Assembly: GCA_034429675.1 (NCBI GenBank)
Contig: DAOUFX010000230.1
Span: 2,339 to 66,338 of the forward strand
Length of the DNA: 64,000 bases
Reading direction: 5' to 3'
Source of the DNA: Anaerolineae bacterium
Lineage (GTDB): Bacteria; Chloroflexota; Anaerolineae; B4-G1; SLSP01
Below are positions 8,423 to 63,561 of the stretch, one piece after another (position 1 is the stretch's first letter; the number at the start of each line of letters is the position of its first letter). The notes beneath the pieces are model-generated. The model made no database searches. It had not been told where the DNA came from and saw only the letters and a program-made list of their open reading frames with translations. The translations under genes were made by a program, and so were the position numbers.

Positions 8423-8436
8423 AGGCAGTAGCTTTC

Positions 8437-13814: not shown

Positions 13815-13853
13815 TCAGCCACACAAGACTATCAAAATTTAGAGGCGTTAAGT

Positions 13854-16612: not shown

Positions 16613-16651
16613 TTTGATTGGCCTGGCGTATACCCTTTTGGGGAGGCTGGT

Positions 16652-28546: not shown

Positions 28547-31336
28547 ATGGCGCCAAAAAAAGCACGATACGGCAAAAAACAAGACCGACCTCCAACGATT
28601 GGTTTGTTGATCGCCCATTCCCGTGATACTTATGAGAATTCTCTGGTGGTTGATATGTCAGCTGCAGCCGGCAAGTTGGGCGCTCGATTGATTTGTTATG
28701 TTGGCAGTGAGCTCTATCGTGAAATGCCGGAAAATGTGATCTTCGATCTGGTTTCATCGGAAAGAATAGATGGGCTTATTATCAGTCCCTCTCTCGGCCA
28801 CAATTTTGACAAGGAGCGTTTGCGCGCGTTTTGTCAGCGTTATGCTCCTTTGCCTATTGTAAGCGGCGCATTGGGTCTTGAGGAGATTCCTCAGGTGATT
28901 CCTGATGGCTACAGAGGAATGCGCCAGTTGGTGGATCACATGATCGAAGTACATGGATGCCGGCGTATGGTTTTTATCCGTGGCCCTGAAGGTCAGGCCG
29001 AGGCGACTGAGCGTTATCGCGCTTATACCGAGTCGTTGGATGCTCATAAGATAGCTCTCGATCCGGCATTGATCCTCCCCGGCAATTTTACCGAAAGGAT
29101 GGCCTACCGCACCCTGGAAGGACTGTTGGCGAGCGGCGTATCCTTTGATGCGGTTGTCGCCGTCAATGATGATTCAGCTTTGGGCGCGCTGCGAGCTTTG
29201 CAGGATCGCCACATTCGCGTCCCGGAGGATGTCGCCCTTACCGGTTTCGACGATGTGGAGGCTTCTCGTAATCGGAGCGTACCCTTTACCACGGTACGCC
29301 AGTTGTTTACGATGTCCGCTGAATGTATGATAAACCTGCTGATGCAGCAAATCCAGGGCGAGGATGTTCCCCCCGTCGTCGTTATACCGACCGAGTTGGT
29401 CATTCGTCGTTCATGTGGTTGTGTGGCCGATTCGATTCGTCAGGTTACAGTTGACGCGCCTTCTCGCATCATAGACTCGTCGCAGCCGGAGATGCCGCTT
29501 CCTGACAGAATCCCATCGGATTTGTGGACTGCGTTTTTGAATGATTTGATGAGTGAGGAGCATGCTAATTTCCTGGGTATCTTGGATCAGAAGGTGCGCC
29601 AGGTTTATGATGAGCGCGGTGATGTTGCGGCCTGGCAAGACACGTTGACGGAGCTGCGACGTTATGCATTGTCTTACATCGCCCTTCAGCAAATTCGCGA
29701 CCCTGGCTGTTTTGACGATCAGGTGAATCTACAAGCCGAGAATTTGCTCCAGCAGGGGCGAGTGTTGGTCAGCGAGGCGGCGCAACGACTTGGCAGCTTG
29801 TTGCACTACGCAGATACTCGCGCTCTGGTAGATTTCCAATATCTTGACCAGGCCCTGGCGACGGTTCTGGATTTGCACGAGTTGCCCGACGCAATCCGCA
29901 CACACTTGCCGTCCTTGGGAGTTCAATACTGTTATTTGGTTTTGCTTGAAGAAACTCGTTCCCTGCAATCGGCCCGACTGTTGTTGGCGTACTCCGATAG
30001 GGTGGCGCATTTTTATGCGGAAAGCCCGACGTTTGATGCGCGATGGTTGTTACCCGATGAGCTATGGGCCGGCAGTCAGCACCAGCATAGCATTGTGGTT
30101 CCGCTTGTGTTGCGAGAGCGGGTATATGGATTTGCCTATATGGATTTTGGAACGTCGCAGGGAAGGATTTACGAGCGACTGGGCAATCAAATCGGCGGGG
30201 TTATTTCTCGTGCACAGTTGATGGCTCAACAGCAGAAGGTGCAACATGAGGTCGAGCGGCTGTTAACCGATGTCCAACGTCGCGCAGCGCTGTTGACCGG
30301 CGCCGCTGAAATCTCGCGAGCGACCACCTCATTGACGAATTTATCCGATCTGCTCACAGAAGCCGTCAACTTGATGTATGACCGTTTCCATTTGTATTAT
30401 GCGGGCATTTTTCTGGTAGACGAGAACCGTCAGTGGGCTGTTTTGAGCGCCGGCACCGGTGAGGCTGGCCGTTTGATGTTGAAGCAAGGGCACAAATTGG
30501 AGATCGGCGGGACTTCAATGATTGGAATGTGCATTACGCAGCGACAAGCGCACATCACGTTCGACGTTGCGCACGATGTGCGGCTGCGTCGCAATCCGTT
30601 GCTGCCGGAGACGCGCTCGGAAATGGCGTTGCCGTTGATCAGCCGCGACCGTGCGATTGGCGCGATGACCATTCAATCTGCACAGCCCAATGCTTTTTCG
30701 GAAGATGATGTTACCGCCTTGCAGACAATGGCCGACCAGTTGGCGAATGCTATTGAGAATGCGCGGCTGTTTGAACAAATGGAACAGAGCCGCCGTGAAT
30801 TGGAGATCGCCTCCGGGCATTATACGCAGGAGGCCTGGCAACAATTTGTCAGCGGAACCGGGCAGTTGGGATATCGCTCGCACCTTTTGGGCGTTAAACC
30901 GGCGGCTGAGATGCACCTTGAAGCGCAAGAAGCCCTGCGACAGAACGCGCCGGTGGTCACTAATCTGATCGCCGAGACCGGCGCGTCGTCCGGCAGCGCC
31001 CTGGGAGTCCCGGTGCGGTTGCGCAATCAAGTGTTGGGCGTATTGAATTTGCGCTTTGAAAGCGAATCTGTCCCGCCGGAAACGGTGGCCTTAGTTGAGC
31101 AGATTGCAGATCGCCTGGCGATTTCCCTGGAAAGCGCGCGGTTGTTGCAGGAAACGTTGAGCACTGCCGAGCGGGAGCAACGCATCGGTCAAGTCACCGG
31201 GCGGATGCGCGAGAATTTGGATGTAGATGCGGTGGTGCGAACTGCTGCCGAGCAGATTCGCGAGGCCATGGATTTGTCGAGTGTGACGATTCGCCTGTCC
31301 CCTCATTCACGACTATCGGACGAGGATGACGCATGA
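28547..31336 (+). CDS. GAF-array member F: LacI/PurR-type periplasmic-binding-protein-fold (type I) ligand-binding domain, without HTH, + helical region + GAF-A + GAF-B + tail; no output domain
   Basis: The N-terminal ~290 aa carry sugar-binding-domain motifs (TIGLLIAHSRDTYENSL, IDGLIISPSL, RRMVFIRGPEGQAEATERYRAY, VVAVNDDSALGALRALQDRHIRVPEDVALTGFDD). No N-terminal HTH is present. GAF-A runs FHLYYAGIFLVDENRQWAVLSAGTGEAGRLMLKQGHKLEIGGTSMIGMCI...PLLPETRSEMALPLISRDRAIGAMTIQS. The tail is REQRIGQVTGRMRENLDVDAVVRTAAEQIREAMDLSSVTIRL. Confidence 0.8.
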   Translation: MAPKKARYGKKQDRPPTIGLLIAHSRDTYENSLVVDMSAAAGKLGARLICYVGSELYREMPENVIFDLVSSERIDGLIISPSLGHNFDKERLRAFCQRYAPLPIVSGALGLEEIPQVIPDGYRGMRQLVDHMIEVHGCRRMVFIRGPEGQAEATERYRAYTESLDAHKIALDPALILPGNFTERMAYRTLEGLLASGVSFDAVVAVNDDSALGALRALQDRHIRVPEDVALTGFDDVEASRNRSVPFTTVRQLFTMSAECMINLLMQQIQGEDVPPVVVIPTELVIRRSCGCVADSIRQVTVDAPSRIIDSSQPEMPLPDRIPSDLWTAFLNDLMSEEHANFLGILDQKVRQVYDERGDVAAWQDTLTELRRYALSYIALQQIRDPGCFDDQVNLQAENLLQQGRVLVSEAAQRLGSLLHYADTRALVDFQYLDQALATVLDLHELPDAIRTHLPSLGVQYCYLVLLEETRSLQSARLLLAYSDRVAHFYAESPTFDARWLLPDELWAGSQHQHSIVVPLVLRERVYGFAYMDFGTSQGRIYERLGNQIGGVISRAQLMAQQQKVQHEVERLLTDVQRRAALLTGAAEISRATTSLTNLSDLLTEAVNLMYDRFHLYYAGIFLVDENRQWAVLSAGTGEAGRLMLKQGHKLEIGGTSMIGMCITQRQAHITFDVAHDVRLRRNPLLPETRSEMALPLISRDRAIGAMTIQSAQPNAFSEDDVTALQTMADQLANAIENARLFEQMEQSRRELEIASGHYTQEAWQQFVSGTGQLGYRSHLLGVKPAAEMHLEAQEALRQNAPVVTNLIAETGASSGSALGVPVRLRNQVLGVLNLRFESESVPPETVALVEQIADRLAISLESARLLQETLSTAEREQRIGQVTGRMRENLDVDAVVRTAAEQIREAMDLSSVTIRLSPHSRLSDEDDA

Positions 31337-45027: not shown

Positions 45028-46806
45028 ATGAAAAGGAGATGGAATAGCCTGGTTTTGAAGATTGGAGTCGCCATCGTCCTGGTTGAGGCGGTGGCGCTTG
45101 CAATCGTTGGCGCCATTTATGTTGATCAAGTTTCGGGCGCCCTGGATGGCGCTTTCGAAAGCCGAATTCAGGTTCCGGCTACACTGATGGATAGACAGTT
45201 GTTGTCTTATGATATGGCTGGGGATCGCGACCTTTTGGAATCGCTGGTCGGCGATCGAGTTTTGCGAAGTTTTATGGTGGACATCAATGGGCAGGTACTT
45301 TTTACATACGCTGATGACTATTTGGGACAACCCTTATCCGACGTGCCCGGCATTGAGGCGCCCGACCGGTTTGACCCGACTCAGGTGCAATTGATCAAAG
45401 TATCCGACGCTGTTATCATTGTTTCTCCACTGAGCTCCGGTCCGCAACGTCAAGTTTTGGGATATTTGTATCTTAAGGTAGCAACTACGCAGTTGCGTCA
45501 GCAAAAGGCCGTCGTTGCATCCATCTTTGGCATAGGGTCTGTGGTTGCGGTGGTGACGACATCGGGGCTGTTGATTTACCTGCTGAACTCACTGGTCTTG
45601 ACGCGCATCGGATCTTTGTTGGGGGTTTCACGGCAAGTGCTTGCCGGAGATTTGACGGCGCGGTTGAGCGGGACATTTTCATCCGACGAGATTGGTGTTT
45701 TGCAGAGTGACATCAATGCCATGGTGGTGCAGTTGGAAGACACCGTCCGCACTTTGGAGTCACGTGTAACCGAGCGCACTTCTGATTTGGAACGCCGGTC
45801 ACGCCAGCTTCAAGTCGTGACCAAAGTCGGAAGCGCTATTGTTTCGATCCGCGAATTCGATACCTTGTTGGCCGAAGTTACCCGGTTGATCAGCGATCAA
45901 TTCGGATTTTATCATGTAGGAATCTTCTTGTTGGATGCATCCGGCAAACGTGCGGTGTTGCGTGCGGCAAATAGTGAGGGTGGGCAGCGTATGCTGGCCC
46001 GTGGCCATACCCTGGAGGTCGGCGGCGTAGGCATCGTGGGATATGTGTCTCGTGAACATCAACCGCGTATTGCGGCGGATGTTGGCGAAGATGCCGTCTA
46101 TTTCGATAACCCGGATTTGCCTGAAACGCGATCAGAGATGGCGTTGCCGTTACTTGCGGGCGGGCGTTTGCTGGGAGTGCTGGATATTCAAAGTAAGGAA
46201 GAGGTTGCCTTCTCTCAGGAAGACGTAGAGACGTTGCGTGGTTTAGCCGATCAGGTAGCGGTTGCTCTCGATAATGCGCGTTTGCTAGGAGAGATTCAGG
46301 CGGCCATCGAAGCGCAACAGCGCGCGTATGGTGAGATCAGCCGCCGGGCGTGGGAGGAACTGTCACGTTCGGAAATTTTAGCCTATCATAGTGAATCTAG
46401 CGGTGACGTTGCGCCACTTGCTGACGAATGGCCGCCCGAAATGATCCAGGCCAAGCAGGAAGGTCATATTGTGCAGATGGACGACTTTACGGTGGCTGTG
46501 CCGGTCAAATTGCGCGGCGAGACGGCGATCGGGGTTGTGAAGCTGCGCCGGCCTGATGACGCTGGGATATGGACACCTCAACAATTGGCATTATTGGAGA
46601 CTTTGAGCGACCGGTTGGGGCAGGCGTTAGAGAGCGCGCGTTTTTACCGGGATTCGCAGCGCGTTGCTTCACGGGAGCAGACCTTACGCGAAATTGTGGA
46701 GCAGGTGCGCGGCGTAGTAGATGTGGATTCGGTTATGCGTACCGCTGTGCGCGAAGTTGGACAGGCGCTCGGTCGTGAGGTTTTTATTTACCTGACGGAG
46801 GAATGA
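45028..46806 (+). CDS. GAF-array member M: TM + extracytoplasmic sensor domain (~150 aa) + TM + HAMP + S-helix + GAF-A + GAF-B + tail; no output domain
   Basis: TM helices are IGVAIVLVEAVALAIVGAIYV and VVASIFGIGSVVAVVTTSGLLIYLL. The HAMP domain is LTRIGSLLGVSRQVLAGDLTARL...EIGVLQSDINAMVVQL. The S-helix is LESRVTERTSDLERRSRQLQVVTKV. GAF-A runs FGFYHVGIFLLDASGKRAVLRAANSEGGQRMLARGHTLEVGGVGIVGYV...PDLPETRSEMALPLLAGGRLLGVLDIQS. The tail is REQTLREIVEQVRGVVDVDSVMRTAVREVGQALGREVFIYL. Confidence 0.85.
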   Translation: MKRRWNSLVLKIGVAIVLVEAVALAIVGAIYVDQVSGALDGAFESRIQVPATLMDRQLLSYDMAGDRDLLESLVGDRVLRSFMVDINGQVLFTYADDYLGQPLSDVPGIEAPDRFDPTQVQLIKVSDAVIIVSPLSSGPQRQVLGYLYLKVATTQLRQQKAVVASIFGIGSVVAVVTTSGLLIYLLNSLVLTRIGSLLGVSRQVLAGDLTARLSGTFSSDEIGVLQSDINAMVVQLEDTVRTLESRVTERTSDLERRSRQLQVVTKVGSAIVSIREFDTLLAEVTRLISDQFGFYHVGIFLLDASGKRAVLRAANSEGGQRMLARGHTLEVGGVGIVGYVSREHQPRIAADVGEDAVYFDNPDLPETRSEMALPLLAGGRLLGVLDIQSKEEVAFSQEDVETLRGLADQVAVALDNARLLGEIQAAIEAQQRAYGEISRRAWEELSRSEILAYHSESSGDVAPLADEWPPEMIQAKQEGHIVQMDDFTVAVPVKLRGETAIGVVKLRRPDDAGIWTPQQLALLETLSDRLGQALESARFYRDSQRVASREQTLREIVEQVRGVVDVDSVMRTAVREVGQALGREVFIYLTEE

Positions 46807-47005
46807 GTTATCGTTTCAATAAAGGTGGGGATTTGGGGGCGGGCGCAGCCCACCCCCCCAGATTTTGAGAAGATACTGAGCATATATCTTTGATTTGACT
46901 TTGTTGGCTATCTGAGCAACGATAGGGTAGAATATGGTAAGGTTATAGAGAAATCTTTTCTCATAACCCCGGACAAAGAGAGACATTTGAGGTAGAGGTG
47001 ATGTT
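46807..47005 (+). promoter_or_regulatory. 199-bp low-GC intergenic region, the largest gap inside the array; probable internal promoter/regulatory region for the downstream cassette
   Basis: GC content drops here. The region contains TTGACT (about 46896) and TAGAAT (about 46929) hexamers, though their spacing is not canonical. An imperfect hairpin GGTTATAGAGAAATCTTTTCTCATAACC at ~46945..46972 lies just upstream of the GAGGTAGAGGTGA ribosome-binding site of gene 47006. Confidence 0.35.
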
Positions 47006-47587
47006 ATGACACAGATTTTTGGTAACTATGTCGAACCGTCCGATGACATCGAACATTTGGTGATCCATTTTTCGCCAACGGCGATCCCTTTACAGCAACG
47101 CTGGCGCAACAATGGGTTGTCGGCGGACTTCCTGGCGGAATATTGGACGACTTTCTTCCCAACGTCCGATACACTTTTCGAAAGCCGTCGAAAAGCGATG
47201 AAGGGCGCGGTTGCTTACATTGCCAATGAGTTGTTGGAAAACATTATGAAATTCAACTACAACCCGGCGCAGTGCGCGGTCAACCTGGGGTTATATTTGC
47301 ATAAAGACGAATTACGTTTTTATACATCCAATGCCATTATCCCCGAGAACTACACCTCGTTTCGTGAGCGCATTCGACAATTGTTGACCGAAGACCCAGA
47401 AGAGTTGTACATTCGCCAGATCGAACAGAATGCTCTGAATGTGGATAAAGGTGGATCGTGCCTGGGACTATTGACAATGATTCACGATTATGAAGCCCAA
47501 CTGGCCTGGAAATTTGAGGATGTGCAATGCGGTACAGCCTCTTCGGAACTGGTGCTTGTCTATACTTTAGTGCGGTTGAATATTTGA
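47006..47587 (+). CDS. GHKL-fold (anti-sigma-factor/RsbW/SiaB/slr1658-like) putative partner-switching pseudo-kinase, copy 1
   Basis: A strong ribosome-binding site is present. An N-box-like IANELLENIMKF fits E-x-x-x-N-x-x-x-[H/F] with Phe at the usual His position. A G2-box-like segment is KGGSCLGLLTM. No G1 box (DxGxG) is recognisable. The product is 193 aa. It is immediately followed by a STAS-like gene, the classic partner-switching pair arrangement. Confidence 0.5.
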   Translation: MTQIFGNYVEPSDDIEHLVIHFSPTAIPLQQRWRNNGLSADFLAEYWTTFFPTSDTLFESRRKAMKGAVAYIANELLENIMKFNYNPAQCAVNLGLYLHKDELRFYTSNAIIPENYTSFRERIRQLLTEDPEELYIRQIEQNALNVDKGGSCLGLLTMIHDYEAQLAWKFEDVQCGTASSELVLVYTLVRLNI

Positions 47588-47601
47588 GGAGGATTGAGGC
47601 T

Positions 47602-47952
47602 ATGAAACAGGTACAGGGTGAGGATTACAGTATTTCCTATGATGATTCTACTGCCACGATTGTGTTTCGGGGACAGATGCGTTTACAAGGAACCGCAGAG
47701 TATGCCAGCATTGAGGAATTACTGGAAGAAGTTTTGACTACCAGTTCCAAGTTAATTTCATTGGATATGTGCGACCTGGAGTTCCTGAACAGCTCCGGTA
47801 TTAATGTGATCTTGAAATTTGCCTTCAAAGTACGGGACTTGCCGATGCGATTTTCTTTATTGTTGCGTGCTAATTCGCAGGTCATGTGGCAATCCCGTAT
47901 GTTGAGCAACTTGCAGCGTTTGATGCCCAATGTGAAGGTGCAATACAACTAG
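47602..47952 (+). CDS. STAS-fold / SiaC (DUF1987, slr1659)-like anti-sigma-antagonist-type protein, copy 1
   Basis: ATG 47602 has GAGGAGGA 7 nt upstream; the track ORF starts earlier at 47527 and overlaps the previous gene. The core LISLDMCDLEFLNSSGINVILKFAFKV matches the STAS/SiaC motif (L-D-[LM]-x-x-L-x-[FY]-[LI]-N-[ST]-S-[SG]-I). The candidate phospho-acceptor is the Ser/Ser pair in LNSSGIN. Confidence 0.55.
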   Translation: MKQVQGEDYSISYDDSTATIVFRGQMRLQGTAEYASIEELLEEVLTTSSKLISLDMCDLEFLNSSGINVILKFAFKVRDLPMRFSLLLRANSQVMWQSRMLSNLQRLMPNVKVQYN

Positions 47953-47988
47953 GCGGTAAAGGGTGCACCATAGTGAAAGAAGGCGATT

Positions 47989-48567
47989 ATGACTGAAATC
48001 TATGGAGATTTTAGGGAGCCTGAAGATGTGGGCGAGTACCTGATTATCCGTTTTTCGCCTAGTTCCATTCCATTGAAGCAACGTTGGCGCAATAATGGGT
48101 TGTCAGCAGACTTTTTGGCCGAGTATTGGGCGACTTTTTTTCCCGCTTATGATATTGCCTCACAGCAACGACAAGCGGAGATCAAGAATGCTATTGATTA
48201 TGTCGCCAATGAGTTGTTGGAGAATATCATGAAGTTTAGCTATTCTCCTTCCAATTACCCTGTAGACATCGGCCTGTATTTATTTGAGGATGAGTTCCGC
48301 TTTTATGCGCGCAATCCGATAGACCCGGTGAGTCTGCAGGGGTTTCGTGAGCTTATTCAGAAATTGCTGGTAGCGGATCCGCTGGAACTTTATCTTCAGC
48401 AAATTGAACATAATGCTGTTTCTGAAGATGGGAATGTCTCGCAGTTGGGTCTGTTGACCATGATGACCGACTACAATGCGACATTGGCCTGGAAATTTGA
48501 ATCGCTTGAGCCGTCTCCCGGAATGGAGATTTTGATTGTGACAACGATGGTGAGTCTATCTTTGTAG
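47989..48567 (+). CDS. GHKL-fold SiaB/slr1658-like putative partner-switching pseudo-kinase, copy 2 (paralogue of 47006..47587)
   Basis: It is collinear with copy 1: PSSIPLKQRWRNNGLSADFLAEYWATFFP versus PTAIPLQQRWRNNGLSADFLAEYWTTFFP. The N-box-like segment is VANELLENIMKFSY and the G2-like segment is SQLGLLTMM. Confidence 0.5.
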   Translation: MTEIYGDFREPEDVGEYLIIRFSPSSIPLKQRWRNNGLSADFLAEYWATFFPAYDIASQQRQAEIKNAIDYVANELLENIMKFSYSPSNYPVDIGLYLFEDEFRFYARNPIDPVSLQGFRELIQKLLVADPLELYLQQIEHNAVSEDGNVSQLGLLTMMTDYNATLAWKFESLEPSPGMEILIVTTMVSLSL

Positions 48568-48608
48568 ATGTCAGATGTTTATTGAAAGCTGAGTGAGGAG
48601 TGCCCATA

Positions 48609-48953
48609 ATGAAAATCGAAGATGAAAATTATGAAGTGACTTATGATCAAGAAACAATGACCATAGTTTTTCATGGAACTTTGCGTCTACGCGGGGTAGC
48701 CGAATACGAGCCCATTACGCATTTGCTGGACGATGTGATCGCCCAGACGCCGGAGAAAGTGACCCTTGATTTGCGCGATCTGCATTTTCTCAACAGTTCT
48801 GGTATCAATATCCTGTTCCGATTTGTGATCAATATGCGTGAAAAGGCAACCACCGTTGTGGTAGTGCGGGGAGCTTCCGAGATTCCATGGCAGACGAAAT
48901 CGTTGAAGAATTTGCAACGGCTGATGCCCGCTTTGCAGTTGGAGTTTGATTGA
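48609..48953 (+). CDS. STAS-fold / SiaC (DUF1987)-like protein, copy 2 (paralogue of 47602..47952)
   Basis: ATG 48609 has GAGGAG 8 nt upstream; the track uses GTG 48600. The core is VTLDLRDLHFLNSSGINILFRFVINM. It is collinear with copy 1 (YEVTYDQETMTIVFHGTLRLRGVAEYEPI versus YSISYDDSTATIVFRGQMRLQGTAEYASI). Confidence 0.55.
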   Translation: MKIEDENYEVTYDQETMTIVFHGTLRLRGVAEYEPITHLLDDVIAQTPEKVTLDLRDLHFLNSSGINILFRFVINMREKATTVVVVRGASEIPWQTKSLKNLQRLMPALQLEFD

Positions 48954-48965: not shown

Positions 48966-49607
48966 ATGGAGCAAGAAGAACCTACCCTTGAGGCTTTGTT
49001 GTCCGAGATTGCTGCTCTGCGTCAGGAAGTCGCCACTTTGCAACAGGAGAGGGACGACATTCAAACCATTATGGATATAACCGTCGAACATTCCGATGGT
49101 GTGACGGCAGAAATGGAGGAGCGCCTGCGGATGATGGAAATGCTGCAGCGAGCGCAGACGCGCGAGGGTTGGGATATTTTGCGGGCGCGACGTGCGGGAT
49201 TGTGGGGGTATGCTTTTGATCGTCAGAAGGTGCGGCGATTGACATCGCTGCCTGCCCCTGATTCGGAAACCCACATGCTTCCGATGGTGATACAGCAAGA
49301 TAAGGTGGGGATGATCGGGGTTCGGGATGACGCGCAACATCCGTTGACTGCGGAAGAGCGAGCTCTGTTGACTTCTCTCTCTGAGCAAATTGCCGCTGCT
49401 CTCGATCGCGCGCGTTTGTTCGAGGTTACTCGTCGCAACGCGGCGCGCGATCAGATTATCAGTGAAATCAGCGCTCAAATGCGGGCATCTTTGGACATTG
49501 ATACAATCTTGCAAACAACGGTCCGTGAAATCGCGGAAGCTCTCAATATTGCACGGGTGGAAGTGCGCCTGGGCAGCGATGAGGATGGAATCGAAGTCGG
49601 ATCTTGA
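48966..49607 (+). CDS. minimal GAF-array member R (213 aa): coiled coil + GAF-B + conserved tail only, with no sensor domain and no GAF-A
   Basis: GGAGGAA lies 6 nt before the ATG. The coiled coil is LEALLSEIAALRQEVATLQQERDDIQ. GAF-B runs MLPMVIQQDKVGMIGVRDDAQHPLTAEERALLTSLSEQIAAALDRARLFE. The tail is RDQIISEISAQMRASLDIDTILQTTVREIAEALNIARVEVRL. Confidence 0.75.
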   Translation: MEQEEPTLEALLSEIAALRQEVATLQQERDDIQTIMDITVEHSDGVTAEMEERLRMMEMLQRAQTREGWDILRARRAGLWGYAFDRQKVRRLTSLPAPDSETHMLPMVIQQDKVGMIGVRDDAQHPLTAEERALLTSLSEQIAAALDRARLFEVTRRNAARDQIISEISAQMRASLDIDTILQTTVREIAEALNIARVEVRLGSDEDGIEVGS

Positions 49608-49624: not shown

Positions 49625-51979
49625 ATGGCTGAGAAACAAAAGCTAAATGTGTCCGGTGAAGAAGTCGTTTCTGCTACCCCCGGTGGAATGTCCGCGCAGG
49701 GCAGTTATCGGTGGAAAGGCAGGTGGCTTTCGATCCGTACCCGTTTGGTCGGTTCCTTTGTAATATTGGTGCTTCTGGCGACGTTAGCCGTTGGAATTAC
49801 ATCGGTGGTGTTCGGCTGGCAGAACGGACGGCAGCGGGTTAATGAACGGCTTGAATTTGAGGTGAGATTAAAGGAATCCGAAATCAACGCCTGGCTGGAC
49901 AGACTGGAGACCAATCTCGAAGCATCGGCCTCTGATCAGGATATTACCGATCTTGCCGATTTTCTTTTGCTGCGTTATGCGGAATTTCCGAATGACGCGG
50001 ACTTGACGCCGAAAAACATCCCGGTGGATATGCGCACCAGTCTGAAGTCGCGGATGCAGATGCATATTAACCAAACTCAACTCTTCAACTATTTGGCCGT
50101 GGTGGATGTATTAGGACGGGTGGTGGTGACGACGGATGTATTGCCGGAAGGCTTAATTCCTAACATCTTATCTTCTGTGGATCCGAAGTTACAATCAGCC
50201 ACGACTACACTCTTTCTCTCTAATGATCCTCAAGTGATTGTGGTGATCCCCGTTTTTGGCGCCGCTTCGGTCCTTGACAACGTGACGTCGCTCCCTTTGG
50301 GGTACATGATCGGCGGTGTTGATTTGAATCCGCTCAATTCAATCATGTTCGATAAATCTGGTCTGGGCGACACCGGCGACATCTATCTTGTTGGCGAGAA
50401 CCGTGTCGCTCTTACAGAATTGCGTTTTGGGGTGCAGGGGCAACTGATGCAAACGTCCGCGGTAGATCGGGCATTTTCTACCAGGAAAAGTGGATCAAGT
50501 GGTTACCGCAATGACCGGAATGAATCGGTGGTGGGTGTTTATTATTGGTTACCTCGATTGAACGCGGTTTTGTTGGCCGAGCAGGCGCGCGCAGAAGCCT
50601 TTGGAGCGATTTACGCAACGCTGATTTTGAATATTGTGATTACTGTGGTTGCTGTAATGTTAGCAGTGGTGGCTGCTTCGTTTATTACGCGCAGCATTGT
50701 GAATCCGTTGGCGCATCTGTCTGAGACTGCGCGGCAGGTCGCCGCCGGGCGGCTTGATCATGTCGCCCGGGTCAATTCTCAGGATGAAGTCGGCCAGCTT
50801 GCTCAGACATTCAATTTGATGACAGAACAGTTGCGCGAACTGTTTGCTAATCTGGAACAGCGTGTTGTTGAACGCACCCATGATTTGGAGCGCCGTTCTG
50901 CGTATTTGGAAGCCTCGGCTGAGGTGGCGCGTGCAGCTTCTTCGATCCTTTCTGTGGATGATCTTATTCAACAAGTTGTTGAACTTATTCGATCACGGTT
51001 TTCCTTTTACTATGTCGGTTTGTTTCTGGTGGAGGGCGATTGGGCTGTTTTGCGCGCCGGCACCGGCGATGCGGGGCGGGCGATGTTGTCCCGGCATCAC
51101 CGTATTCGGGTAGGAGAAGGAATGATCGGATGGAGTATCGCTAATCTGCAACCTCGAATCGCCTCACGGGCGGAGGCCGATGCAGTTCGTGTGGTTAACC
51201 CTGAGTTGCCGGACACCCGCTCCGAAGTGGCATTGCCGCTGCGTTCCCGTGGACAGGTTTTGGGCGCATTGAGTGTGCAGAGTACACGTCCCGATGCATT
51301 TGATGAAGATGTGCTCACGACATTGCAGATTATGGCGGATCAGGTCGCCGTGGCGTTGAATAATGCCAGTTTGTTTGCCGCTTCTCAGGAAGCATTGGAA
51401 GCGGAACGGCGTGAGTATGGTGAACGCACTCGACAAAGTTGGGCCGATTTGTTGCGGACGCGCAAATCATGGGGTTATGTCTATGAGCGTGCTCCCGATC
51501 CTGAAATCGCGTCAGCGACGTTGGTGGAGGCGCAAGGTAAGTGGAGCGCTGAACTACGGGAGGTCAAGCGGTCCGGTCATCATATTCAGAATATTGTGTC
51601 CAATATGCGGCGTTTGTCCGTCCCGATATGGGTGGGGAGTGATGTGATTGGAGCGCTGTCTTTTGACCGCAGTGAATCCGATGTGCCCTGGACAGATGAA
51701 GAGGTTCTGTTGCTTGAGACGTTGACGGATCAGTTGGGACAAACCCTGGAACGGGCTCAGTTGTATTGGAATACTCAGCGACGCGCGGCGCGTGAACAGT
51801 TGACGCGCGAAATTACCGACACCATGCGGCGTACGCTGAATTGGGATGATTTGATGCAAGCGGCGATTCGTGAGGTGGGCGGTGTGTTGGAGGCATCCCG
51901 CGCCTTCGTCCAGTGGACGCCTGCCGGGATGATGGCGCCAGGCACAGACCGCCTACACCCGGTTGAGGACCAGGAATGA
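49625..51979 (+). CDS. GAF-array member S: TM + Cache-like periplasmic domain + TM + HAMP + S-helix + GAF-A + GAF-B + tail; no output domain
   Basis: TM helices are LVGSFVILVLLATLAVGITSVVF and IYATLILNIVITVVAVMLAVVAASFI. The HAMP domain is RSIVNPLAHLSETARQVAAGRLDHV...EVGQLAQTFNLMTEQL. The S-helix is LEQRVVERTHDLERRSAYLEASAEV. GAF-A runs FSFYYVGLFLVEGDWAVLRAGTGDAGRAMLSRHHRIRVGEGMIGWSI...PELPDTRSEVALPLRSRGQVLGALSVQS. The tail is REQLTREITDTMRRTLNWDDLMQAAIREVGGVLEASRAFVQW. Confidence 0.85.
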   Translation: MAEKQKLNVSGEEVVSATPGGMSAQGSYRWKGRWLSIRTRLVGSFVILVLLATLAVGITSVVFGWQNGRQRVNERLEFEVRLKESEINAWLDRLETNLEASASDQDITDLADFLLLRYAEFPNDADLTPKNIPVDMRTSLKSRMQMHINQTQLFNYLAVVDVLGRVVVTTDVLPEGLIPNILSSVDPKLQSATTTLFLSNDPQVIVVIPVFGAASVLDNVTSLPLGYMIGGVDLNPLNSIMFDKSGLGDTGDIYLVGENRVALTELRFGVQGQLMQTSAVDRAFSTRKSGSSGYRNDRNESVVGVYYWLPRLNAVLLAEQARAEAFGAIYATLILNIVITVVAVMLAVVAASFITRSIVNPLAHLSETARQVAAGRLDHVARVNSQDEVGQLAQTFNLMTEQLRELFANLEQRVVERTHDLERRSAYLEASAEVARAASSILSVDDLIQQVVELIRSRFSFYYVGLFLVEGDWAVLRAGTGDAGRAMLSRHHRIRVGEGMIGWSIANLQPRIASRAEADAVRVVNPELPDTRSEVALPLRSRGQVLGALSVQSTRPDAFDEDVLTTLQIMADQVAVALNNASLFAASQEALEAERREYGERTRQSWADLLRTRKSWGYVYERAPDPEIASATLVEAQGKWSAELREVKRSGHHIQNIVSNMRRLSVPIWVGSDVIGALSFDRSESDVPWTDEEVLLLETLTDQLGQTLERAQLYWNTQRRAAREQLTREITDTMRRTLNWDDLMQAAIREVGGVLEASRAFVQWTPAGMMAPGTDRLHPVEDQE

Positions 51980-54787: not shown

Positions 54788-56506
54788 ATGGAGAGTCAAA
54801 AGTTGCGACCTGGTAATGCATCACGAGAGGAAACGTCCCTGGAACTGACGACCTTGCAGCGCTCTTTTATGCAAGTTCTACTCAGGATTATAACCATAAC
54901 TGTTCCTGTCTCGTTGGGAATATCTGCATACGCTGCATGGAATGTGGGGCAAAAGGCGCTTACCTTCGTTTTGGGAGCGATTTACGTTGTGCTTTTGGTT
55001 TGTTACTTTTGGCAGAGCGCTGCTTTCCGTTTACGGACATGGGTGTTATTAGGGCTATTGGCAGCAAATGCTTTTATCACTTTGGCGAGAGGCGAACCTA
55101 ACGGAACTGCGCGAATGTTCTTGATTCTCATTCCCTTTCTGGCCCGGCTATTTTTGAACCGTAGGGATGGGATTGTGAGCATTGCCTTATGTCTGGTGCT
55201 GGATGGTCTGGCGGGGTTTCTACTCGATATCGGCGTTTTACCGCCTCCTATGGGGAGAGGGGACTTTGATATTCGCATGTGGCTGCTGCCGGGGACGCTG
55301 GTGTTGTTTACTGTGGATGTTCTGATTGTGATCGGCGTGGACTACTTTCTGCAAAACTTTGACGTTCTGTTGAACCGTAGCCGTTTGTTAGCCGACGACC
55401 TGAAATCACAGCGAGCGCATTTGGAAGCGCAGGTCAATGAGCGCACGACGACGATAGCTCGGCGTGCCAAGTATCTGGAGGCGACTGCCAAGATTGCGCG
55501 TGGAGCTTCTATTTCCCTGGATAATCCTGAGATGTTGTATGCGCACCTGGTGAATTTGATCGCCGAGCAACTGGGCTTCTCCAATGTCTCGTTATTTTTG
55601 GTGGATTCAAGCAACGAGTGGGTTGACTTGCGTGCTGCCTCCAGTGATGCCGGGAAGCACTTATTGGAACAAGGGCATCGTTTGCGTGTGGGAGGACAGG
55701 GTTTGGTGGGCTATGCCGCCGATCGGGGTGAAGTCAGAGTGGTGTCAGATGTGCTTGCAGATGTTCTGTTCAAGGCTCACGGGGTTTTGCCGACGACTCG
55801 CTCCGAAGTCGCTTTGCCGTTGCGTGTGGCCGATGCGATTATCGGCGTGCTGGATGTTCAGAGTGTAGACCCGCACGCTTTCAGTGAGGAAGACGTTGCC
55901 GTTTTACAATCGTTGGCCGATGAGGTTGCCGTGGCGGTAAGCAATGTACGTTTGTTCCAGCAACTACAGGAAAGTATTCAGGCCGAACGCCGTGCGCGCG
56001 GTGAGTCGTCGTTTGACGCCTGGCGCGAACAGCTTCAGGTACAAAGTGGTTTGGGGTTTGTGAAGCAGAGAAATGTTATGACCCTATCCGGCGATTTTTG
56101 GCAACAAGAGATGGCTTCGGCGGTGAAGTCGGGGCGCCCGGCATTGTCCCTCGCCGACCCGCGCACTCTGGCGGTGCCGATCAAAGCGGGTGGGCATGTT
56201 GTGGCCGTGATTGATGCGCGGCTCCCCGATGCGTTTAGTAAGTGGCAACCTGAGCAGATTTCTCTGTTAGAGGCTCTTTCCGATGAATTGGGTGAGGCGT
56301 TGGAGCGTGCGCGACTCTACGAGGAGACCCAACGCCGCGCTACGCGCGAACAACTTTCACGCGAAGTGACCACTCGTGTTCGTGAATCTCTGGATATTGA
56401 GACGATTCTGTTGACGGCAGTGAATGAGATTGGTAGCCGTTTGGGGGTAGAGACTGAGGTGTGGATGGGGATGGATCTGGCGTCTGATGAACATGCCGGC
56501 GGTTAG
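54788..56506 (+). CDS. GAF-array member U: polytopic membrane N-domain + S-helix + GAF-A + GAF-B + tail; no output domain
   Basis: There are ~6 TM helices. The S-helix is LEAQVNERTTTIARRAKYLEATAKIAR. GAF-A runs LGFSNVSLFLVDSSNEWVDLRAASSDAGKHLLEQGHRLRVGGQGLVGYA...LPTTRSEVALPLRVADAIIGVLDVQS. The tail is REQLSREVTTRVRESLDIETILLTAVNEIGSRLGVETEVWM. Confidence 0.85.
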   Translation: MESQKLRPGNASREETSLELTTLQRSFMQVLLRIITITVPVSLGISAYAAWNVGQKALTFVLGAIYVVLLVCYFWQSAAFRLRTWVLLGLLAANAFITLARGEPNGTARMFLILIPFLARLFLNRRDGIVSIALCLVLDGLAGFLLDIGVLPPPMGRGDFDIRMWLLPGTLVLFTVDVLIVIGVDYFLQNFDVLLNRSRLLADDLKSQRAHLEAQVNERTTTIARRAKYLEATAKIARGASISLDNPEMLYAHLVNLIAEQLGFSNVSLFLVDSSNEWVDLRAASSDAGKHLLEQGHRLRVGGQGLVGYAADRGEVRVVSDVLADVLFKAHGVLPTTRSEVALPLRVADAIIGVLDVQSVDPHAFSEEDVAVLQSLADEVAVAVSNVRLFQQLQESIQAERRARGESSFDAWREQLQVQSGLGFVKQRNVMTLSGDFWQQEMASAVKSGRPALSLADPRTLAVPIKAGGHVVAVIDARLPDAFSKWQPEQISLLEALSDELGEALERARLYEETQRRATREQLSREVTTRVRESLDIETILLTAVNEIGSRLGVETEVWMGMDLASDEHAGG

Positions 56507-56528
56507 TGTGTTTGTGGAGAACGAGCGT

Positions 56529-56777
56529 ATGAAAAGATTTAAAGCATTTTTGCGACAGCCAGAACTGATGGCCTTGCTTTTTATCCTGGGGGGCCTTGCC
56601 TTTTTTTACCCGGTTCTATTGATGTTGGAAGCTGCGCCGCCACGAACCACGATGCTTGCTGTCTATCTCCCTTGGGGTTTGATCACACTGGCGTTGATTT
56701 TTATTGGACGCGCCAGCTTCGCGGACTCCTCTTCTCCGGAAGCTACGTCGCAGGATGAAGGGGGGCGTGATGGCTAA
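56529..56777 (+). CDS. small 2-TM membrane protein, DUF4212-like (sodium:solute symporter-associated small subunit)
   Basis: ATG 56529 has GGAGAA 8 nt upstream; the track begins at 56487 and overlaps the previous gene. The 82-aa product has two TM helices (LMALLFILGGLAFFYPVLLML and LAVYLPWGLITLALIFIG). Its stop overlaps the downstream SSS-family start by 8 nt, the typical pairing of the DUF4212 small subunit with an SSS permease. Confidence 0.55.
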   Translation: MKRFKAFLRQPELMALLFILGGLAFFYPVLLMLEAAPPRTTMLAVYLPWGLITLALIFIGRASFADSSSPEATSQDEGGRDG

Positions 56778-59898: not shown

Positions 59899-61847
59899 GC
59901 ATTCGAGTGAGTCTGGTCATATTGATTGTGTTGGTGGGAATTTTGCCGCTGGGGATTGCCGTTTTTGCGGCTACCAACCAGATGGAGACTCTGGCTATTG
60001 ACAGCGGCAAGGCCGCGCTGGAACAGATTGGCCGGGCTACCATTTACGATCAAGCCACTACGACGGCGCAACAGCTCGCCGCGTATTTCCACGCAAATCC
60101 TGAGATTGACCTGGCTCATTTGTTAGACTACGCCGACGATGAGACGATGCGATCTCTGGCGGTGCAGCCTGTTGGGAAAACCGGTTACACTGCCATCCTC
60201 GACGCCGATGGTGTGGTTTATTTTCATCCCAATCCTGCTTTGATTGGCATCAATATGGCTGTCCTGTCGGAGAAGTTGCCGGACTTTTGGCGCATTCTCT
60301 CTCGCGGCCTGGATGGGACCCTATCGTCCGGGGATTACGATTGGATCGAACCCGATGGAAGCACTCGCCAGAAATACATGGTGGTGATGCCTGTGGGCGA
60401 TACTCAATTCCGGGTGGCGGCCACCACCTATTTGGATGAGTTCTCTGAATCTACTCGCCAGATCGAGACCGCTTTGCGTGACGTGGCGACACTGACACGC
60501 CAACGTTTTTTCGGCACAATCTTGCTGGTTGCCCTGGGGGTTCTGATCCTTGCCTTGCTGACCAGTGTGTGGGTGACCACGCCTCTGCGCGAAATGGCCG
60601 AGGCTGCTGTTCTGGTCAGCGCGGGCAAGTGGGACGCTATCCAACCATCGCGGCGCCGTGATGAATTGGGAATACTGAATCAGGCATTTTACAACATGAC
60701 CGCTCAAGTACGCGGGCTGGTAAGCGGGCTGGAAAAACAGGTCGCCGAACGCACCCAACATTTGGAACGGCGGGCGCGCTATCTGGAAGCGACTTCGGCG
60801 GTTGCGCGGGGGGCGGCTTCAATTCTCGACCTGGAAGCTTTGTTGTCTGACATTGTTAATCTGGTCGGCCAGCAATTTGGCTTCTATCATGTTGCACTAT
60901 TCTTGCTCGGTGCGGACAATGAGTGGGTTGAGTTGCGCGCAGCATCCAGTGAGGGTGGGCGGCAGCTGCTCATTCAGGGACATCGTTTGCGGGTGGATGA
61001 TCCCGGACTTGTCGGGAGTGTTATCCGCGCCAGCGAATCACGCCTGGCGGTGGACGTCGAAGGTGAAGCGTCGCCATTTCGCGATGCCTATATGCCGGAG
61101 ACTCGCTCCGAGCTGGTTCTCCCGTTGCATGCGCGTGATCAGGTCATTGGCGTGCTGGATGTCCACAGTCGTGAGGCTGAGGCCTTTGATTCGGAAGATG
61201 TGACGGCTTTGCAGTCCCTGGCCGACCAGATAGCGGTCGCGATCAGTAATGCTTATCTCTTCCGGCAGGTCGAGGCCAGCGCTGAAGCAGAGCGTCGCGC
61301 CCGTGGCGAAGCTGAATTGGAAGCCTGGCAGGGTTTGTTGCACTCACGGATGAATCTGGCTTTCCGCAGTACCTCGCGTGGAACGGTTCCTGTCCCCGAT
61401 TTGTGGTATCCAGAGATGGTTCAAGCTATTCGGACGGCTCAACCGGTACAAGATAAGGAAGATGGCACGCGCTTTGCCGTCCCGATCCAGGTAGCCGGGC
61501 AGGTCATCGGCGTGATCGAGGGGCGCAAACCGCAGGCGACGGGCCCCTGGACGTCCGATGACATTGTTCTGATGGACACGTTAGCCGCGCAGTTAAATGC
61601 GGCTGTCGAGCGCGCCCGGCTCTACCATGAAACACAGCGCAGCGCAGCGCGTGAACGTGCGATTGCCGACGTTACTTCGCGTATGCGAGAACCGTTGGAG
61701 CTGGAAGATGTGCTGAAGGCTGCGGTCTCCGAAATCCGTCAGGCATTGGATATGGACGAACTGGCAGTGCGCCTGACGATGTCCGGGCCGTTGAAGCTCG
61801 ATGCCCATATGGAAGAAGGATTGGAAGATCATGAAAACCATAGGTAA
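59895..61847 (+). CDS. GAF-array member X: TM + Cache-like + TM + HAMP + S-helix + GAF-A + GAF-B + tail; no output domain
   Basis: ATG 59895 forms an ATGA overlap with the previous stop and has GGGAGA 8 nt upstream; the track begins at 59829. TM helices are VSLVILIVLVGILPLGIAVFAA and FGTILLVALGVLILALLTSVWV. The HAMP domain is TTPLREMAEAAVLVSAGKWDAI...ELGILNQAFYNMTAQV. The S-helix is LEKQVAERTQHLERRARYLEATSAVAR. GAF-A runs FGFYHVALFLLGADNEWVELRAASSEGGRQLLIQGHRLRVDDPGLVGSV...AYMPETRSELVLPLHARDQVIGVLDVHS. The tail is RERAIADVTSRMREPLELEDVLKAAVSEIRQALDMDELAVRL. Confidence 0.85.
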   Translation: MSIRVSLVILIVLVGILPLGIAVFAATNQMETLAIDSGKAALEQIGRATIYDQATTTAQQLAAYFHANPEIDLAHLLDYADDETMRSLAVQPVGKTGYTAILDADGVVYFHPNPALIGINMAVLSEKLPDFWRILSRGLDGTLSSGDYDWIEPDGSTRQKYMVVMPVGDTQFRVAATTYLDEFSESTRQIETALRDVATLTRQRFFGTILLVALGVLILALLTSVWVTTPLREMAEAAVLVSAGKWDAIQPSRRRDELGILNQAFYNMTAQVRGLVSGLEKQVAERTQHLERRARYLEATSAVARGAASILDLEALLSDIVNLVGQQFGFYHVALFLLGADNEWVELRAASSEGGRQLLIQGHRLRVDDPGLVGSVIRASESRLAVDVEGEASPFRDAYMPETRSELVLPLHARDQVIGVLDVHSREAEAFDSEDVTALQSLADQIAVAISNAYLFRQVEASAEAERRARGEAELEAWQGLLHSRMNLAFRSTSRGTVPVPDLWYPEMVQAIRTAQPVQDKEDGTRFAVPIQVAGQVIGVIEGRKPQATGPWTSDDIVLMDTLAAQLNAAVERARLYHETQRSAARERAIADVTSRMREPLELEDVLKAAVSEIRQALDMDELAVRLTMSGPLKLDAHMEEGLEDHENHR

Positions 61848-63561
61848 GTGGATCAGATGGTTTTGGGCAGCGCCGGTTTTCGCGGACGATGAAGAGAAAA
61901 CGCGAATGGCGGAGATACTCAATCCTTTGTTGGTGGGTCTGATGGGGTTGTTGGTATTCGCTGCATTCGCCAGTTTTTTTGTTTTTGCTCAGAAGGTAGC
62001 CAGCGGCATTGTGGTTGCGATTTTGTTCTTTATTTTGTTGCTTTCTCGATGGAGCATGTACCGCGGAAATTTGCGTTTTGCCGGCGCGCTCTTTGCGTGG
62101 GGGACGTGGCTCCCTTGTCTGCTCGTTGTCATTCTGTCCAACATGCGCAGCCTTCTTTCCGTCTCTCTGGTAGCGATTATTGTGATTGCTGGGGTGCTTT
62201 TGGGCCGGCGAACGGCCATTGTGATGGGAATTTCGACCAGTGCGGCGGTCCTGGTTCTGGCCATAGCGGTAATCCTGGGATACCAACTGCCGGATATGTT
62301 CCCTTCTCCAGTTCCGGCAAGTTGGGTCGTGATGACGGTGGGATTGGTGATGGTTTTGTTGCCGCTGAACATTGCACTGCGAGGAATGGGTGAGGCGTTG
62401 TCGCGATCGAAAATTTACGCGACCGAGTTGGAAGGCCAGCGGGAACAATTGGAAGTATTGGTGCGTGAGCGCACTCGCGATTTGATGCGCCGTACCAGCT
62501 ATTTGGGCGCGACCGCCATTGTAGCGCAAGAGGCAGCGATGGTAGTGGGCGATCTGGACAAACTGCTCGCGCGGGTGGTACAGATTGTGAGCGAACAGTT
62601 TGATTTTTACCATACCGGGCTTTTTTTGTTGAACGACAGCGGCGAGTGGGTAGAATTGTGCGCCGCTTCCAGTGAAGGTGGACGGCGGATGTTGGCGCGT
62701 GGGCATCGCCTACGCGTGGGAGTGGAAGGTATCGTCGGGTACGTCGCGCTCCATGGCGAACCACGGGTATCTTTGGATGTGGGTGAGGATGCCGTGTTTT
62801 TCAACAATCCCGACCTGCCGGCTACCCGTTCTGAGGTGGCTTTGCCCTTGCAACTGAGCCGCGAAATGATCGGGGTATTGGATGTACAGAGTACCGAGCC
62901 GGAGGCTTTCAGCAATGAAGATGTGCGTGTTTTGCAATCTCTGGCCGATCAGGTTGCCGTCGCCATCAATAACGCGCGTTTGCTGCGGCAGGTCCAACAA
63001 GTGGCCGAAGGAGAACGTCGCGCACGTAGCGAATTGATTCAGCAAGCCTGGGCTCGCTTTTTGCGGACGCAGTCGCAAGTTGCCTATTTGAGCAACCGCC
63101 GGGGAGTTTTCTCGGCGCAAAGCAAGTGGCAGCCTGAGATGGAAGTCGCGGTGCGTTCTGGCCGACCGGTAGTTAGTGAAGACGACCCTAATTATCTGGC
63201 AATTCCACTTCAAGTGGGCGGACAGGTTATTGGAATTCTGGATGGGCGCAAACCCGATGGTTGGACGACAGACGAAATTGCCATGGTGACTACTTTGACC
63301 GAGGAATTGGGCGATGCCCTGGATCGCGCTCGACTTTATCGTGAGACTCAACGCCGCGCTGCCCGTGAGCAAATGGCCGGGCAGGTAACGGCCAATATTC
63401 GCGAATCGCTGGATTTGGATACTGTTTTGCAGACGGCGGCGCGTGAGGTGGCTAAAGCTCTGAATTTGCCCAAGGTGGAAGTGTGGTTGGGGGCCGGCCC
63501 GCAGAATGTGCCGTCATCCCGGCCGGGAGGAAATGCGGATGGCGTTAACTCGAAATCTTAA
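61831..63561 (+). CDS. GAF-array member Y: polytopic membrane N-domain + S-helix + GAF-A + GAF-B + tail; no output domain
   Basis: The start is set at ATG 61831 (MKTIGKWIRWFWAAPVFADDEEKTR...), whose N-terminus parallels member H; the track begins at 61801. There are ~6 TM helices. The S-helix is LEVLVRERTRDLMRRTSYLGATAIVAQ. GAF-A runs FDFYHTGLFLLNDSGEWVELCAASSEGGRRMLARGHRLRVGVEGIVGYV...PDLPATRSEVALPLQLSREMIGVLDVQS. The tail is REQMAGQVTANIRESLDLDTVLQTAAREVAKALNLPKVEVWL. Confidence 0.85.
   Translation: MKTIGKWIRWFWAAPVFADDEEKTRMAEILNPLLVGLMGLLVFAAFASFFVFAQKVASGIVVAILFFILLLSRWSMYRGNLRFAGALFAWGTWLPCLLVVILSNMRSLLSVSLVAIIVIAGVLLGRRTAIVMGISTSAAVLVLAIAVILGYQLPDMFPSPVPASWVVMTVGLVMVLLPLNIALRGMGEALSRSKIYATELEGQREQLEVLVRERTRDLMRRTSYLGATAIVAQEAAMVVGDLDKLLARVVQIVSEQFDFYHTGLFLLNDSGEWVELCAASSEGGRRMLARGHRLRVGVEGIVGYVALHGEPRVSLDVGEDAVFFNNPDLPATRSEVALPLQLSREMIGVLDVQSTEPEAFSNEDVRVLQSLADQVAVAINNARLLRQVQQVAEGERRARSELIQQAWARFLRTQSQVAYLSNRRGVFSAQSKWQPEMEVAVRSGRPVVSEDDPNYLAIPLQVGGQVIGILDGRKPDGWTTDEIAMVTTLTEELGDALDRARLYRETQRRAAREQMAGQVTANIRESLDLDTVLQTAAREVAKALNLPKVEVWLGAGPQNVPSSRPGGNADGVNSKS

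Follow-up and report, generated by a model that had tools for sequence, protein, structure and literature searches.

How does a large set of sensors that carry no output domain pass on what it senses? The question is raised by a 64,000-nucleotide stretch of an Anaerolineae genome (contig DAOUFX010000230.1, positions 2,339 to 66,338; hereafter the window), in which two consecutive copies of a two-gene unit, A1-B1 and A2-B2, lie within a long series of sensor genes and are followed directly by the gene of a small protein with a partial GAF domain, here called mini-GAF (Table 1). An earlier note on this DNA had read each unit as a kinase-like gene followed by a STAS-like gene, of either the slr1658-slr1659 or the SiaB-SiaC type. 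We identified the two units as paralogous slr1658/slr1659 modules, which probably couple the state of the multi-sensor array to an output. The module as such is a named family; its duplicated, PP2C-less, mini-GAF-linked form in a giant sensor array is new.

The two-unit structure was evident from the open reading frames (ORFs), and independent gene calls on the source contig gave the same four plus-strand genes with the same protein lengths. The source contig is metagenomic and 84 kb long (JGI 3300023207 Ga0255811_10442780). The intergenic gap is 14 bp in the first unit and 41 bp in the second. The motifs pointed out in the earlier note were found as described: an N-box-like ANELLENIMKF occupies residues 73-83 in A1 and A2 alike, GLLTM occurs in both, neither contains a G1 box (DxGxG), and the STAS/SiaC-like core motif of the small proteins reads LDLRDLHFLNSSGIN in B2 and LDMCDLEFLNSSGIN in B1. 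The duplication had been called exact, with about 60% identity between the copies. It is exact in architecture but not in sequence, and the figure holds for the DNA (58.6% overall, 61.6% for A, 55.5% for B) but not for the proteins, which are 55% identical between A1 and A2 (E 2e-79) and 40% identical between B1 and B2 (E 1e-36).

Curated profiles separated the two types. Against the slr1658 superfamily model (NF047703, cut-off 100 bits), A1 and A2 scored 205.8 and 221.3 bits with full-length profile coverage, and against the slr1658_cyano equivalog (NF052618, cut-off 200 bits) they scored 218.6 and 226.6 bits. B1 and B2 reached 123.9 and 157.2 bits against the slr1659 superfamily model (NF047705, cut-off 100 bits). 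In Pfam, DUF6272 (PF19788, gathering threshold 26.6 bits) gave 30.4 bits for A1 and 20.9 for A2, and STAS (PF01740, gathering threshold 22.6 bits) gave 26.9 bits for B2 and 18.5 for B1. The SiaB kinase model (NF038262, cut-off 85 bits) returned only 24 and 20 bits for A1 and A2. The SiaC/DUF1987 model (PF09345, threshold 24.5 bits) returned 18.7 bits for B2 and no match for B1, so that the DUF1987 assignment of the small proteins had to be given up. A1 and A2 thus belong to the slr1658 superfamily and B1 and B2 to the slr1659 superfamily, and membership in the SiaB and SiaC families is excluded. HATPase_c_2, which had been named beside DUF1987 and the slr1658 type as a model to try, had no Pfam match in the A proteins. 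These proteins also depart from GHKL anti-sigma kinases in that G1 is replaced by N109 without glycines and G2 is reduced to xLGLL, and the window holds no sigma gene; the N-box residues E75 and N79 are both present. B2 has the marks of a STAS anti-sigma antagonist, namely its Pfam score, a STAS fold and a serine at the N-terminus of helix 2. A1 and B1 retain all family-invariant residues, including the FLNSSG serine in B1, and these residues are retained in both copies. The family comprises 1430 clusters at 90% identity (word-indexed search) or 568 clusters at 50% (representative search) and was found in Cyanobacteria, Chloroflexota, Beggiatoaceae, Burkholderiales and other groups. The nearest named relatives are metagenome-assembled genomes (MAGs) of Anaerolineae and other Chloroflexota.

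The GHKL and STAS relationships proposed in the earlier note were upheld by structural comparison. An AF2 model of B2 (predicted local distance difference test, pLDDT, 95.5) matched SiaC in Foldseek with TM-scores of 0.74-0.76 and anti-sigma antagonists with 0.68 (4QTP, RsbV, SpoIIAA). For A2, the best TM-score among solved structures was that to SiaB (0.55/0.61). Fold comparison on the A side gave values of 13.2 for UsfX/RsbW, 13.0 for SiaB (141 aligned residues), 11.2 for SpoIIAB, 10.9 for the RsbW domain of Rv1364c, 10.1 for RsbW and 6-7 for the catalytic (CA) domains of histidine kinases. Searches of the PDB with the A2 sequence and with the A-family profile gave nothing significant.

Conservation placed many of the most constrained residues of A at the putative nucleotide site. 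Across 119 representatives of the A family, down to 31% identity, E75 is invariant, and G6, W33, A40, N74, L76, E78, N79, K82, N109, G154, Y162 and W168 are conserved in at least 90%. Seven of these 13 positions (N74, E75, L76, E78, N79, K82 and N109) belong to stretches whose alignment partners are the N-box and G1 site of GHKL proteins. A weak, non-significant alignment to SpoIIAB (hhalign, E 0.18), used solely to propose residue equivalences consistent with the fold match, placed E75 opposite E46, N79 opposite the Mg-binding N50, F83 opposite H54, and N109 opposite D81 of the G1 box. In a weak alignment of the broad A-family profile with SiaB (E 0.58), the SiaB asparagine in VVSAGN falls at the N109 position and SiaB AGLGLLDI lies opposite A-family SGLGLLTM, with G154 within GLGLL. 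SiaB is the experimentally shown kinase of SiaC Thr68 (PMC7647112, PMC7278518). Since a proven kinase aligns with the same asparagine and the same GLGLL, the absent G1 box does not speak against the putative kinase activity of A. On the B side, Ser63 is invariant in 117 homologues including B1, aligns with Ser58 of SpoIIAA (FLNSSGIN against FMDSSGLG) and, by manual comparison, corresponds to Thr68 of SiaC (LNSSG against LNTSS, peptide LLYLNTSSIK).

We turned to the genes around the modules. As the earlier note had it, the cassette is embedded in a GAF array: A1-B1-A2-B2-miniGAF is the sole interruption of 19 same-strand sensor genes. Together with the mini-GAF gene it sits inside an array, more than 50 kb long, of sensors without an output domain, and the array reaches the contig end through a further two GAF genes and one for TctC. 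The sensor inputs are MASE11, dCache, Cache_3-Cache_2, periplasmic-binding or PAS domains, usually followed by HAMP, GAF and a common C-terminal module. Pfam on large ORFs and custom PP2C and GGDEF hidden Markov models (HMMs) on six-frame ORFs found no PP2C, GGDEF or sigma-factor gene in the window, and precomputed Pfam annotation found no PP2C or GGDEF gene in the 4.7 kb from the window to the contig end. The earlier remark that a phosphatase, a sigma factor and a diguanylate cyclase are missing nearby therefore holds for the window, and for PP2C and GGDEF 4.7 kb beyond it. With no linked phosphatase, a reversible switch would require a phosphatase gene elsewhere. In this setting the A-B pair is a good candidate for the read-out of the array.

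The mini-GAF gene provides the closest tie between the modules and the sensors. Pfam recognised only the C-terminal half of a GAF domain in its product, and residues ~100-207 correspond to the very C-terminal end of 18 sensors out of 19, with E values from 3e-7 to 3e-24 and mostly at or below 1e-12. Only seven mini-GAF clusters were present among 5.8 billion proteins searched, and every mini-GAF gene with visible context comes after a B gene within a GAF array. Five such arrays have it directly 3' of B with a gap of 10-13 bp: those of the window and of loci L004, L171, L170 and L089. These arrays come in three forms. A gene for a GAF-PP2C protein lies directly upstream of A, B and mini-GAF in L089; L170 has A, B and mini-GAF without PP2C; and the window, L004 and L171 have A1, B1, A2, B2 and mini-GAF without PP2C. 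Strict co-occurrence lends real support to mini-GAF as a candidate partner of A-B, one of the partners that the earlier note had suggested. SiaC is known to bind the coiled-coil stalk of SiaD (PMC8457831), which makes the coiled-coil-like N-terminus of mini-GAF a reasonable candidate docking site.

The module that mini-GAF shares with the sensors spans about 100-160 amino acids and is seen, for example, in the last ~110 residues of the products of 45028-46806, 49625-51979 and 61831-63561. It consists of a W..L..R helix and a stretch that matches only the last third of GAF, and its tail of about 50 amino acids (R.A.RE....I...MR..LD.D.VL.TA..E....L....V.VRL) resembles the first helix and strand of GAF. 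The module could be a circularly permuted or domain-swapping GAF. A conserved serine or threonine that might serve as a kinase target was sought across the module, and none was seen.

To place the locus among its relatives we took a census of 78 loci from genomes and metagenomes with at least 3 kb on each side, scanned with custom HMMs. These were built from few sequences and are less sensitive than Pfam, so that weak PP2C or GAF domains may be missed. Many of the loci come from related Microcoleus genomes, which inflates the counts, and the loci are not independent. B lay within 4 kb of A in 78/78 loci, and 53 of them had a SpoIIE-type PP2C upstream of A; over the same 4-kb distance from A, 23 loci had a histidine kinase and 8 a GGDEF protein. 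A also occurs in fusion proteins of the forms A-B, CHASE2-PP2C-A, GGDEF-A and pentapeptide-A (entries P0281, P0286, P0288, P0294, P0275, P0252, P0322 and P0269), and a Chloroflexaceae MAG encodes a ~2000-amino-acid GAF-PP2C-A protein (L019, 4586-10582). Neighbours and fusions together supply all the parts of a partner switch of the SiaABCD kind whose outputs can be exchanged. Since PP2C is the commonest neighbour elsewhere and lies upstream of A in the sister array L089, its absence at this locus is a derived feature.

Duplicated modules showed a pattern of their own. Six loci have two A genes (L004, L006, L008, L009, L087 and L088), and none of them has a PP2C upstream, against 53 of the 72 single-A loci; in this phylogenetically biased sample the association is only suggestive. 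In L087 and L009 a PP2C lies downstream. L088 (Anaerolineae MAG, 7219-17776) has A-B-A-B followed by a PAS histidine kinase and at least five PAS-STAS proteins. L009 (Caldilineaceae MAG, 7841-16789) has B-A-A-B within a stressosome-like cluster of dCache-HAMP-STAS, PAS-STAS and STAS genes, two HATPase_c_2 genes and a SpoIIE gene; RsbS/T/X-like genes occur in L009 too. The slr1658/9 module thus co-occurs with stressosome-type clusters, and duplicated A/B modules tend to be found with arrays of sensors that have a C-terminal module in common and no output domain.

The two pairs have been maintained. The order A1-B1-A2-B2 is retained in two further genomes (L004 and L171). Comparison of the three gave ratios of nonsynonymous to synonymous substitution (dN/dS) of 0.04-0.21 over A1, B1, A2 and B2, with synonymous sites near saturation. 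The ratio was 0.04-0.07 for A1 against its L004 and L171 orthologues, 0.06-0.21 for B1 and 0.09-0.14 for mini-GAF. The cassette genes and the mini-GAF gene are therefore under purifying selection. In a rough neighbour-joining tree A1 clustered with the single A of L089, A2 was sister to both, and B1 stood on a long branch. The earlier note had left a choice between dosage and two specificities for the two pairs; because both persist in three genomes under purifying selection and have diverged from each other, two specificities are favoured.

The analysis establishes to which families the proteins belong, their folds, where the conserved motifs lie, the linkage of the genes, the fusions and the purifying selection. 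The activity of A, the phospho-site, the partner and the source of dephosphorylation we infer as follows. Each pair would work like SiaB-SiaC or RsbW-RsbV, with A as a GHKL-fold serine kinase and binder and B as a STAS phosphoprotein. A would bind B and transfer phosphate from ATP to the invariant serine at the N-terminal end of helix 2 (Ser63 in FLNSSG of B2). The phosphorylation state of B would set which partner B or A can bind, and unphosphorylated B or freed A would be the form that binds it. The partner here would most likely be mini-GAF or the common module of the sensors, with coupling through contacts between mini-GAF and the module, and the signal would end at the histidine kinase and both receivers that head the array, or at a target not linked to it. 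Dephosphorylation could be due to an unlinked PP2C, or the second A-B pair could form a second tier. In cyanobacteria, kinases and phosphatases that act in trans on STAS proteins have been documented (PMC13555669). In the history of this lineage, the linked PP2C would have been lost and the module duplicated into two diverged pairs that became fixed beside mini-GAF.

Several points weigh against this model. A literature search found no biochemical data on any slr1658/slr1659 protein, only the phenotype of a Synechocystis slr1658 knock-out. A lacks the G1 box and has Asn in place of the adenine-binding Asp. Similarity to SiaB, SiaC and SpoIIAB lies below significance, and the residue equivalences come from weak alignments together with the fold. 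Adjacency alone cannot separate a partner from a co-regulated neighbour, whether for A/B and mini-GAF, the array proteins or the histidine kinase. Finally, no phosphatase is linked to the cassette in the window or up to the contig end.

The modules might instead be a normal partner switch aimed at the head histidine kinase and receivers, or at an unlinked kinase, and their position beside the GAF sensors and mini-GAF might mean co-expression only. The census kinases, which in their 23 loci are within 4 kb of A-B, often lie directly 3' of B; in L088 the PAS histidine kinase follows A-B-A-B directly, in L006 and L008 two kinases are followed directly by A-A-B, and the window array itself opens with two REC genes and a HAMP-GAF histidine kinase. 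That kinase lies 30 kb away from the cassette, and the 10-13 bp spacing of mini-GAF from B recurs in five of five GAF arrays and hardly anywhere else, so we consider a switch of this kind unlikely. It and coupling to the array through mini-GAF do not exclude each other.

We can also imagine, tentatively and as an unlikely elaboration, that A, B and mini-GAF are the centre of a signal integrator that resembles a stressosome but uses a GAF-like module where the stressosome uses STAS. The output-less sensors, at least 20 in number, would co-assemble through their common module, with mini-GAF as a minimal scaffold in the way that RsbS serves RsbR. This assembly would capture or release the slr1658 kinases and their slr1659 STAS partners, the coiled-coil N-terminus of mini-GAF would dock unphosphorylated B much as the SiaD stalk docks SiaC (PMC8457831), and in place of the missing PP2C the second A-B pair would serve as a further tier or a reset layer.

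If A were a pseudo-kinase, the switch could operate by binding only: A would sequester and release B or a target without phosphoryl transfer, as has been said of UsfX, and no phosphatase would be required at this locus. The missing G1 box, the asparagine at the adenine-binding position, the absence of PP2C up to the contig end and its absence upstream of A in all six two-A loci would each fit. Many of the most conserved positions of the superfamily nevertheless align with the GHKL Mg/nucleotide site, both the Asn and GLGLL of A have counterparts in the alignment with SiaB, a demonstrated kinase, and the serine of B is invariant. Moreover, a linked PP2C has been kept in most relatives, including the sister GAF array, which is sensible only if B is phosphorylated. 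We judge a binding-only switch rather improbable.

The earlier note had raised the possibility of a phage or plasmid remnant. That the cassette was acquired recently and is what remains of a mobile element, phage or plasmid, or that it is a duplicate in decay, and in either case plays no part in the array, is close to refuted: its GC content is low (45.5% against 54.5% for the array), but its GC3 (GC content at third codon positions) of 0.51-0.56 is the same as that of its neighbours (0.55-0.57), PHROGs and PADLOC gave no matches, order and content are kept under purifying selection in three genomes, and the invariant residues are intact in both copies. Since GC3 matches, the low GC of the cassette is due to amino-acid composition. 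Horizontal transfer, which the low GC had suggested, was rejected on the same GC3 match with the neighbouring genes, and a defence-system or phage origin was dropped after the PADLOC and PHROGs searches.

Table 1. Features of the cassette and the surrounding array (window coordinates).
Feature	Position	Strand	Length	Description
Array head	13413-16612	+		Two receivers and histidine kinase; only classical output-type components of the operon-like array
Single-domain receiver 1	13413-13814	+		Pfam and custom REC HMM
Single-domain receiver 2	13854-14273	+		Custom REC HMM
Histidine kinase	14258-16612	+		HAMP-GAF-HisKA-HATPase_c (Pfam)
Sensor array	16652-63561	+	19 genes	Pfam and module mapping; no enzymatic output domain in any
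Sensor directly 5' of cassette	45028-46806	+	592 aa	HAMP, GAF, common module (against mini-GAF, E 7e-14); no output domain
Spacer before A1	46807-47005	+	199 bp	Largest gap near the cassette; hairpin and conserved block
A1	47006-47587	+	193 aa	slr1658-superfamily GHKL-fold protein; putative Ser kinase and binding partner of B
B1	47602-47952	+	116 aa	slr1659-superfamily STAS-like protein; faster-evolving copy
A2	47989-48567	+	192 aa	slr1658-superfamily GHKL-fold protein
B2	48609-48953	+	114 aa	slr1659-superfamily STAS protein; candidate phospho-serine Ser63
Mini-GAF	48966-49607	+	213 aa	N-terminal coiled-coil-like segment and C-terminal module common to array sensors; candidate A-B partner or adaptor
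Sensor directly 3' of mini-GAF	49625-51979	+	784 aa	dCache, HAMP, GAF, common module

The spacer upstream of A1 gives a hint that the cassette could have a regulatory input of its own. A GC-rich hairpin at ~46830-46864 (minimum free energy -27.1 kcal/mol, z-score -2.5) looks like a terminator and would divide the array into at least two transcription units. Its G-run/C-run is followed by AGATTTTGAGAAGATAC just 3' of the stop codon of the preceding sensor gene. L171 has a like G-run/C-run and then AGxTTTTGAGAAGATAC ahead of A1 (~35-85); L004 has none. Further downstream, a 42-nt noncoding block (46889-46930) differs from L004 by a single G/A despite the near-saturated synonymous sites. It contains TTGGCT-N18-TAGAAT and the inverted repeat CTATC-N8-GATAG, and may be the promoter and operator of the cassette. 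Scans of the cassette's surroundings for promoters and terminators gave no more than expected by chance, and the promoter-like match alone is not above chance; Rfam returned nothing credible.

Other features of the array were recorded along the way. Solute-binding elements are scattered through the GAF arrays, as a LacI-type periplasmic-binding domain fused in the window sensor 28547-31336 and as separate NMT1/TctC binding-protein genes in L004 (14020-15111), L170 (16376-17341), L171 (5099-6154), L169 (13442-14425) and the remainder of this contig, which suggests small-molecule inputs. A small gene at ~56487-56777 (L001 18499-18789; 96 amino acids, no Pfam match) overlaps the ends of two array genes and has a counterpart of 81-82 amino acids at the same place in L004 and L171. 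Two unrelated genes are found immediately upstream of the array: 9976-12675 encodes an 899-amino-acid multi-pass membrane protein with no Pfam match, and 12605-13171 on the minus strand is a 188-amino-acid ORF with the motif HVHWWVVPRY, like that of HIT-family histidine-triad proteins. GC falls to 48% in a 1.5-kb boundary region upstream of the array.

The slr1658/slr1659 pair is widespread, yet we found no mechanism for it in the literature beyond Synechocystis genetics. The comparative data lead to a testable family-wide model, a SiaABC-like serine-phosphorylation switch with interchangeable outputs, among them diguanylate cyclases, histidine kinases and sensor arrays. The locus is also an entry point to the puzzle of how very large arrays of output-less sensors signal. 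If A, B and mini-GAF do read out the array, they would represent a new mode of integrating many inputs and a minimal three-protein core for reconstitution.

Among known systems, Slr1658/Slr1659 of Synechocystis sp. PCC 6803 belongs to the same families by curated profile, shares the A-then-B order and strict pairing, and has cyanobacterial slr1659 homologues to which B2 is 52-58% identical. Loss of slr1658 in Synechocystis causes poor recovery from iron starvation and raises pgr5 about 1000-fold (PMC7555055, PMC6525291). The host here is an Anaerolineae-like member of the Chloroflexota and not a cyanobacterium, and the pair is duplicated. Most cyanobacterial loci have a ~660-amino-acid PP2C just upstream, whereas none is linked here, and the pairs lie within a GAF-sensor array that has a mini-GAF of its own. 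The SiaABCD system of Pseudomonas aeruginosa (PP2C SiaA, kinase SiaB, DUF1987 protein SiaC, diguanylate cyclase SiaD) provides the nearest structures to A2 (SiaB) and B2 (SiaC), and its layout, with PP2C upstream and GGDEF adjacent or fused, is seen among the A/B relatives. This locus fails the SiaB and SiaC profiles, lacks the linked PP2C and GGDEF of that system within the window and the 4.7 kb to the contig end, and has two kinase/STAS pairs; the likely partner would be a GAF-module protein or a histidine kinase and not a cyclase.

From SpoIIAB-SpoIIAA and RsbW-RsbV the locus differs in having no sigma factor, no HATPase_c_2 match and no G1 box, and in its gene order of kinase, then STAS. 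In addition, A has an extra conserved N-terminal segment of about 55 residues (RWRNxGLSADFL...FFP) that is absent from the anti-sigma kinases. The stressosome (RsbR paralogues, RsbS, RsbT, RsbX) is similar in its logic. The window has no RsbT-type HATPase_c_2 kinase and no RsbX, its sensors end in a GAF-like module and not in STAS, and its scaffold candidate is mini-GAF and not RsbS. Both systems have sensors of variable input with one common C-terminal module (PMC9237108), and in both the genes alongside encode a short stand-alone version of that module together with a GHKL kinase and its STAS partner. The relatives L009 and L088 carry duplicated A/B modules inside true sensor-STAS arrays.

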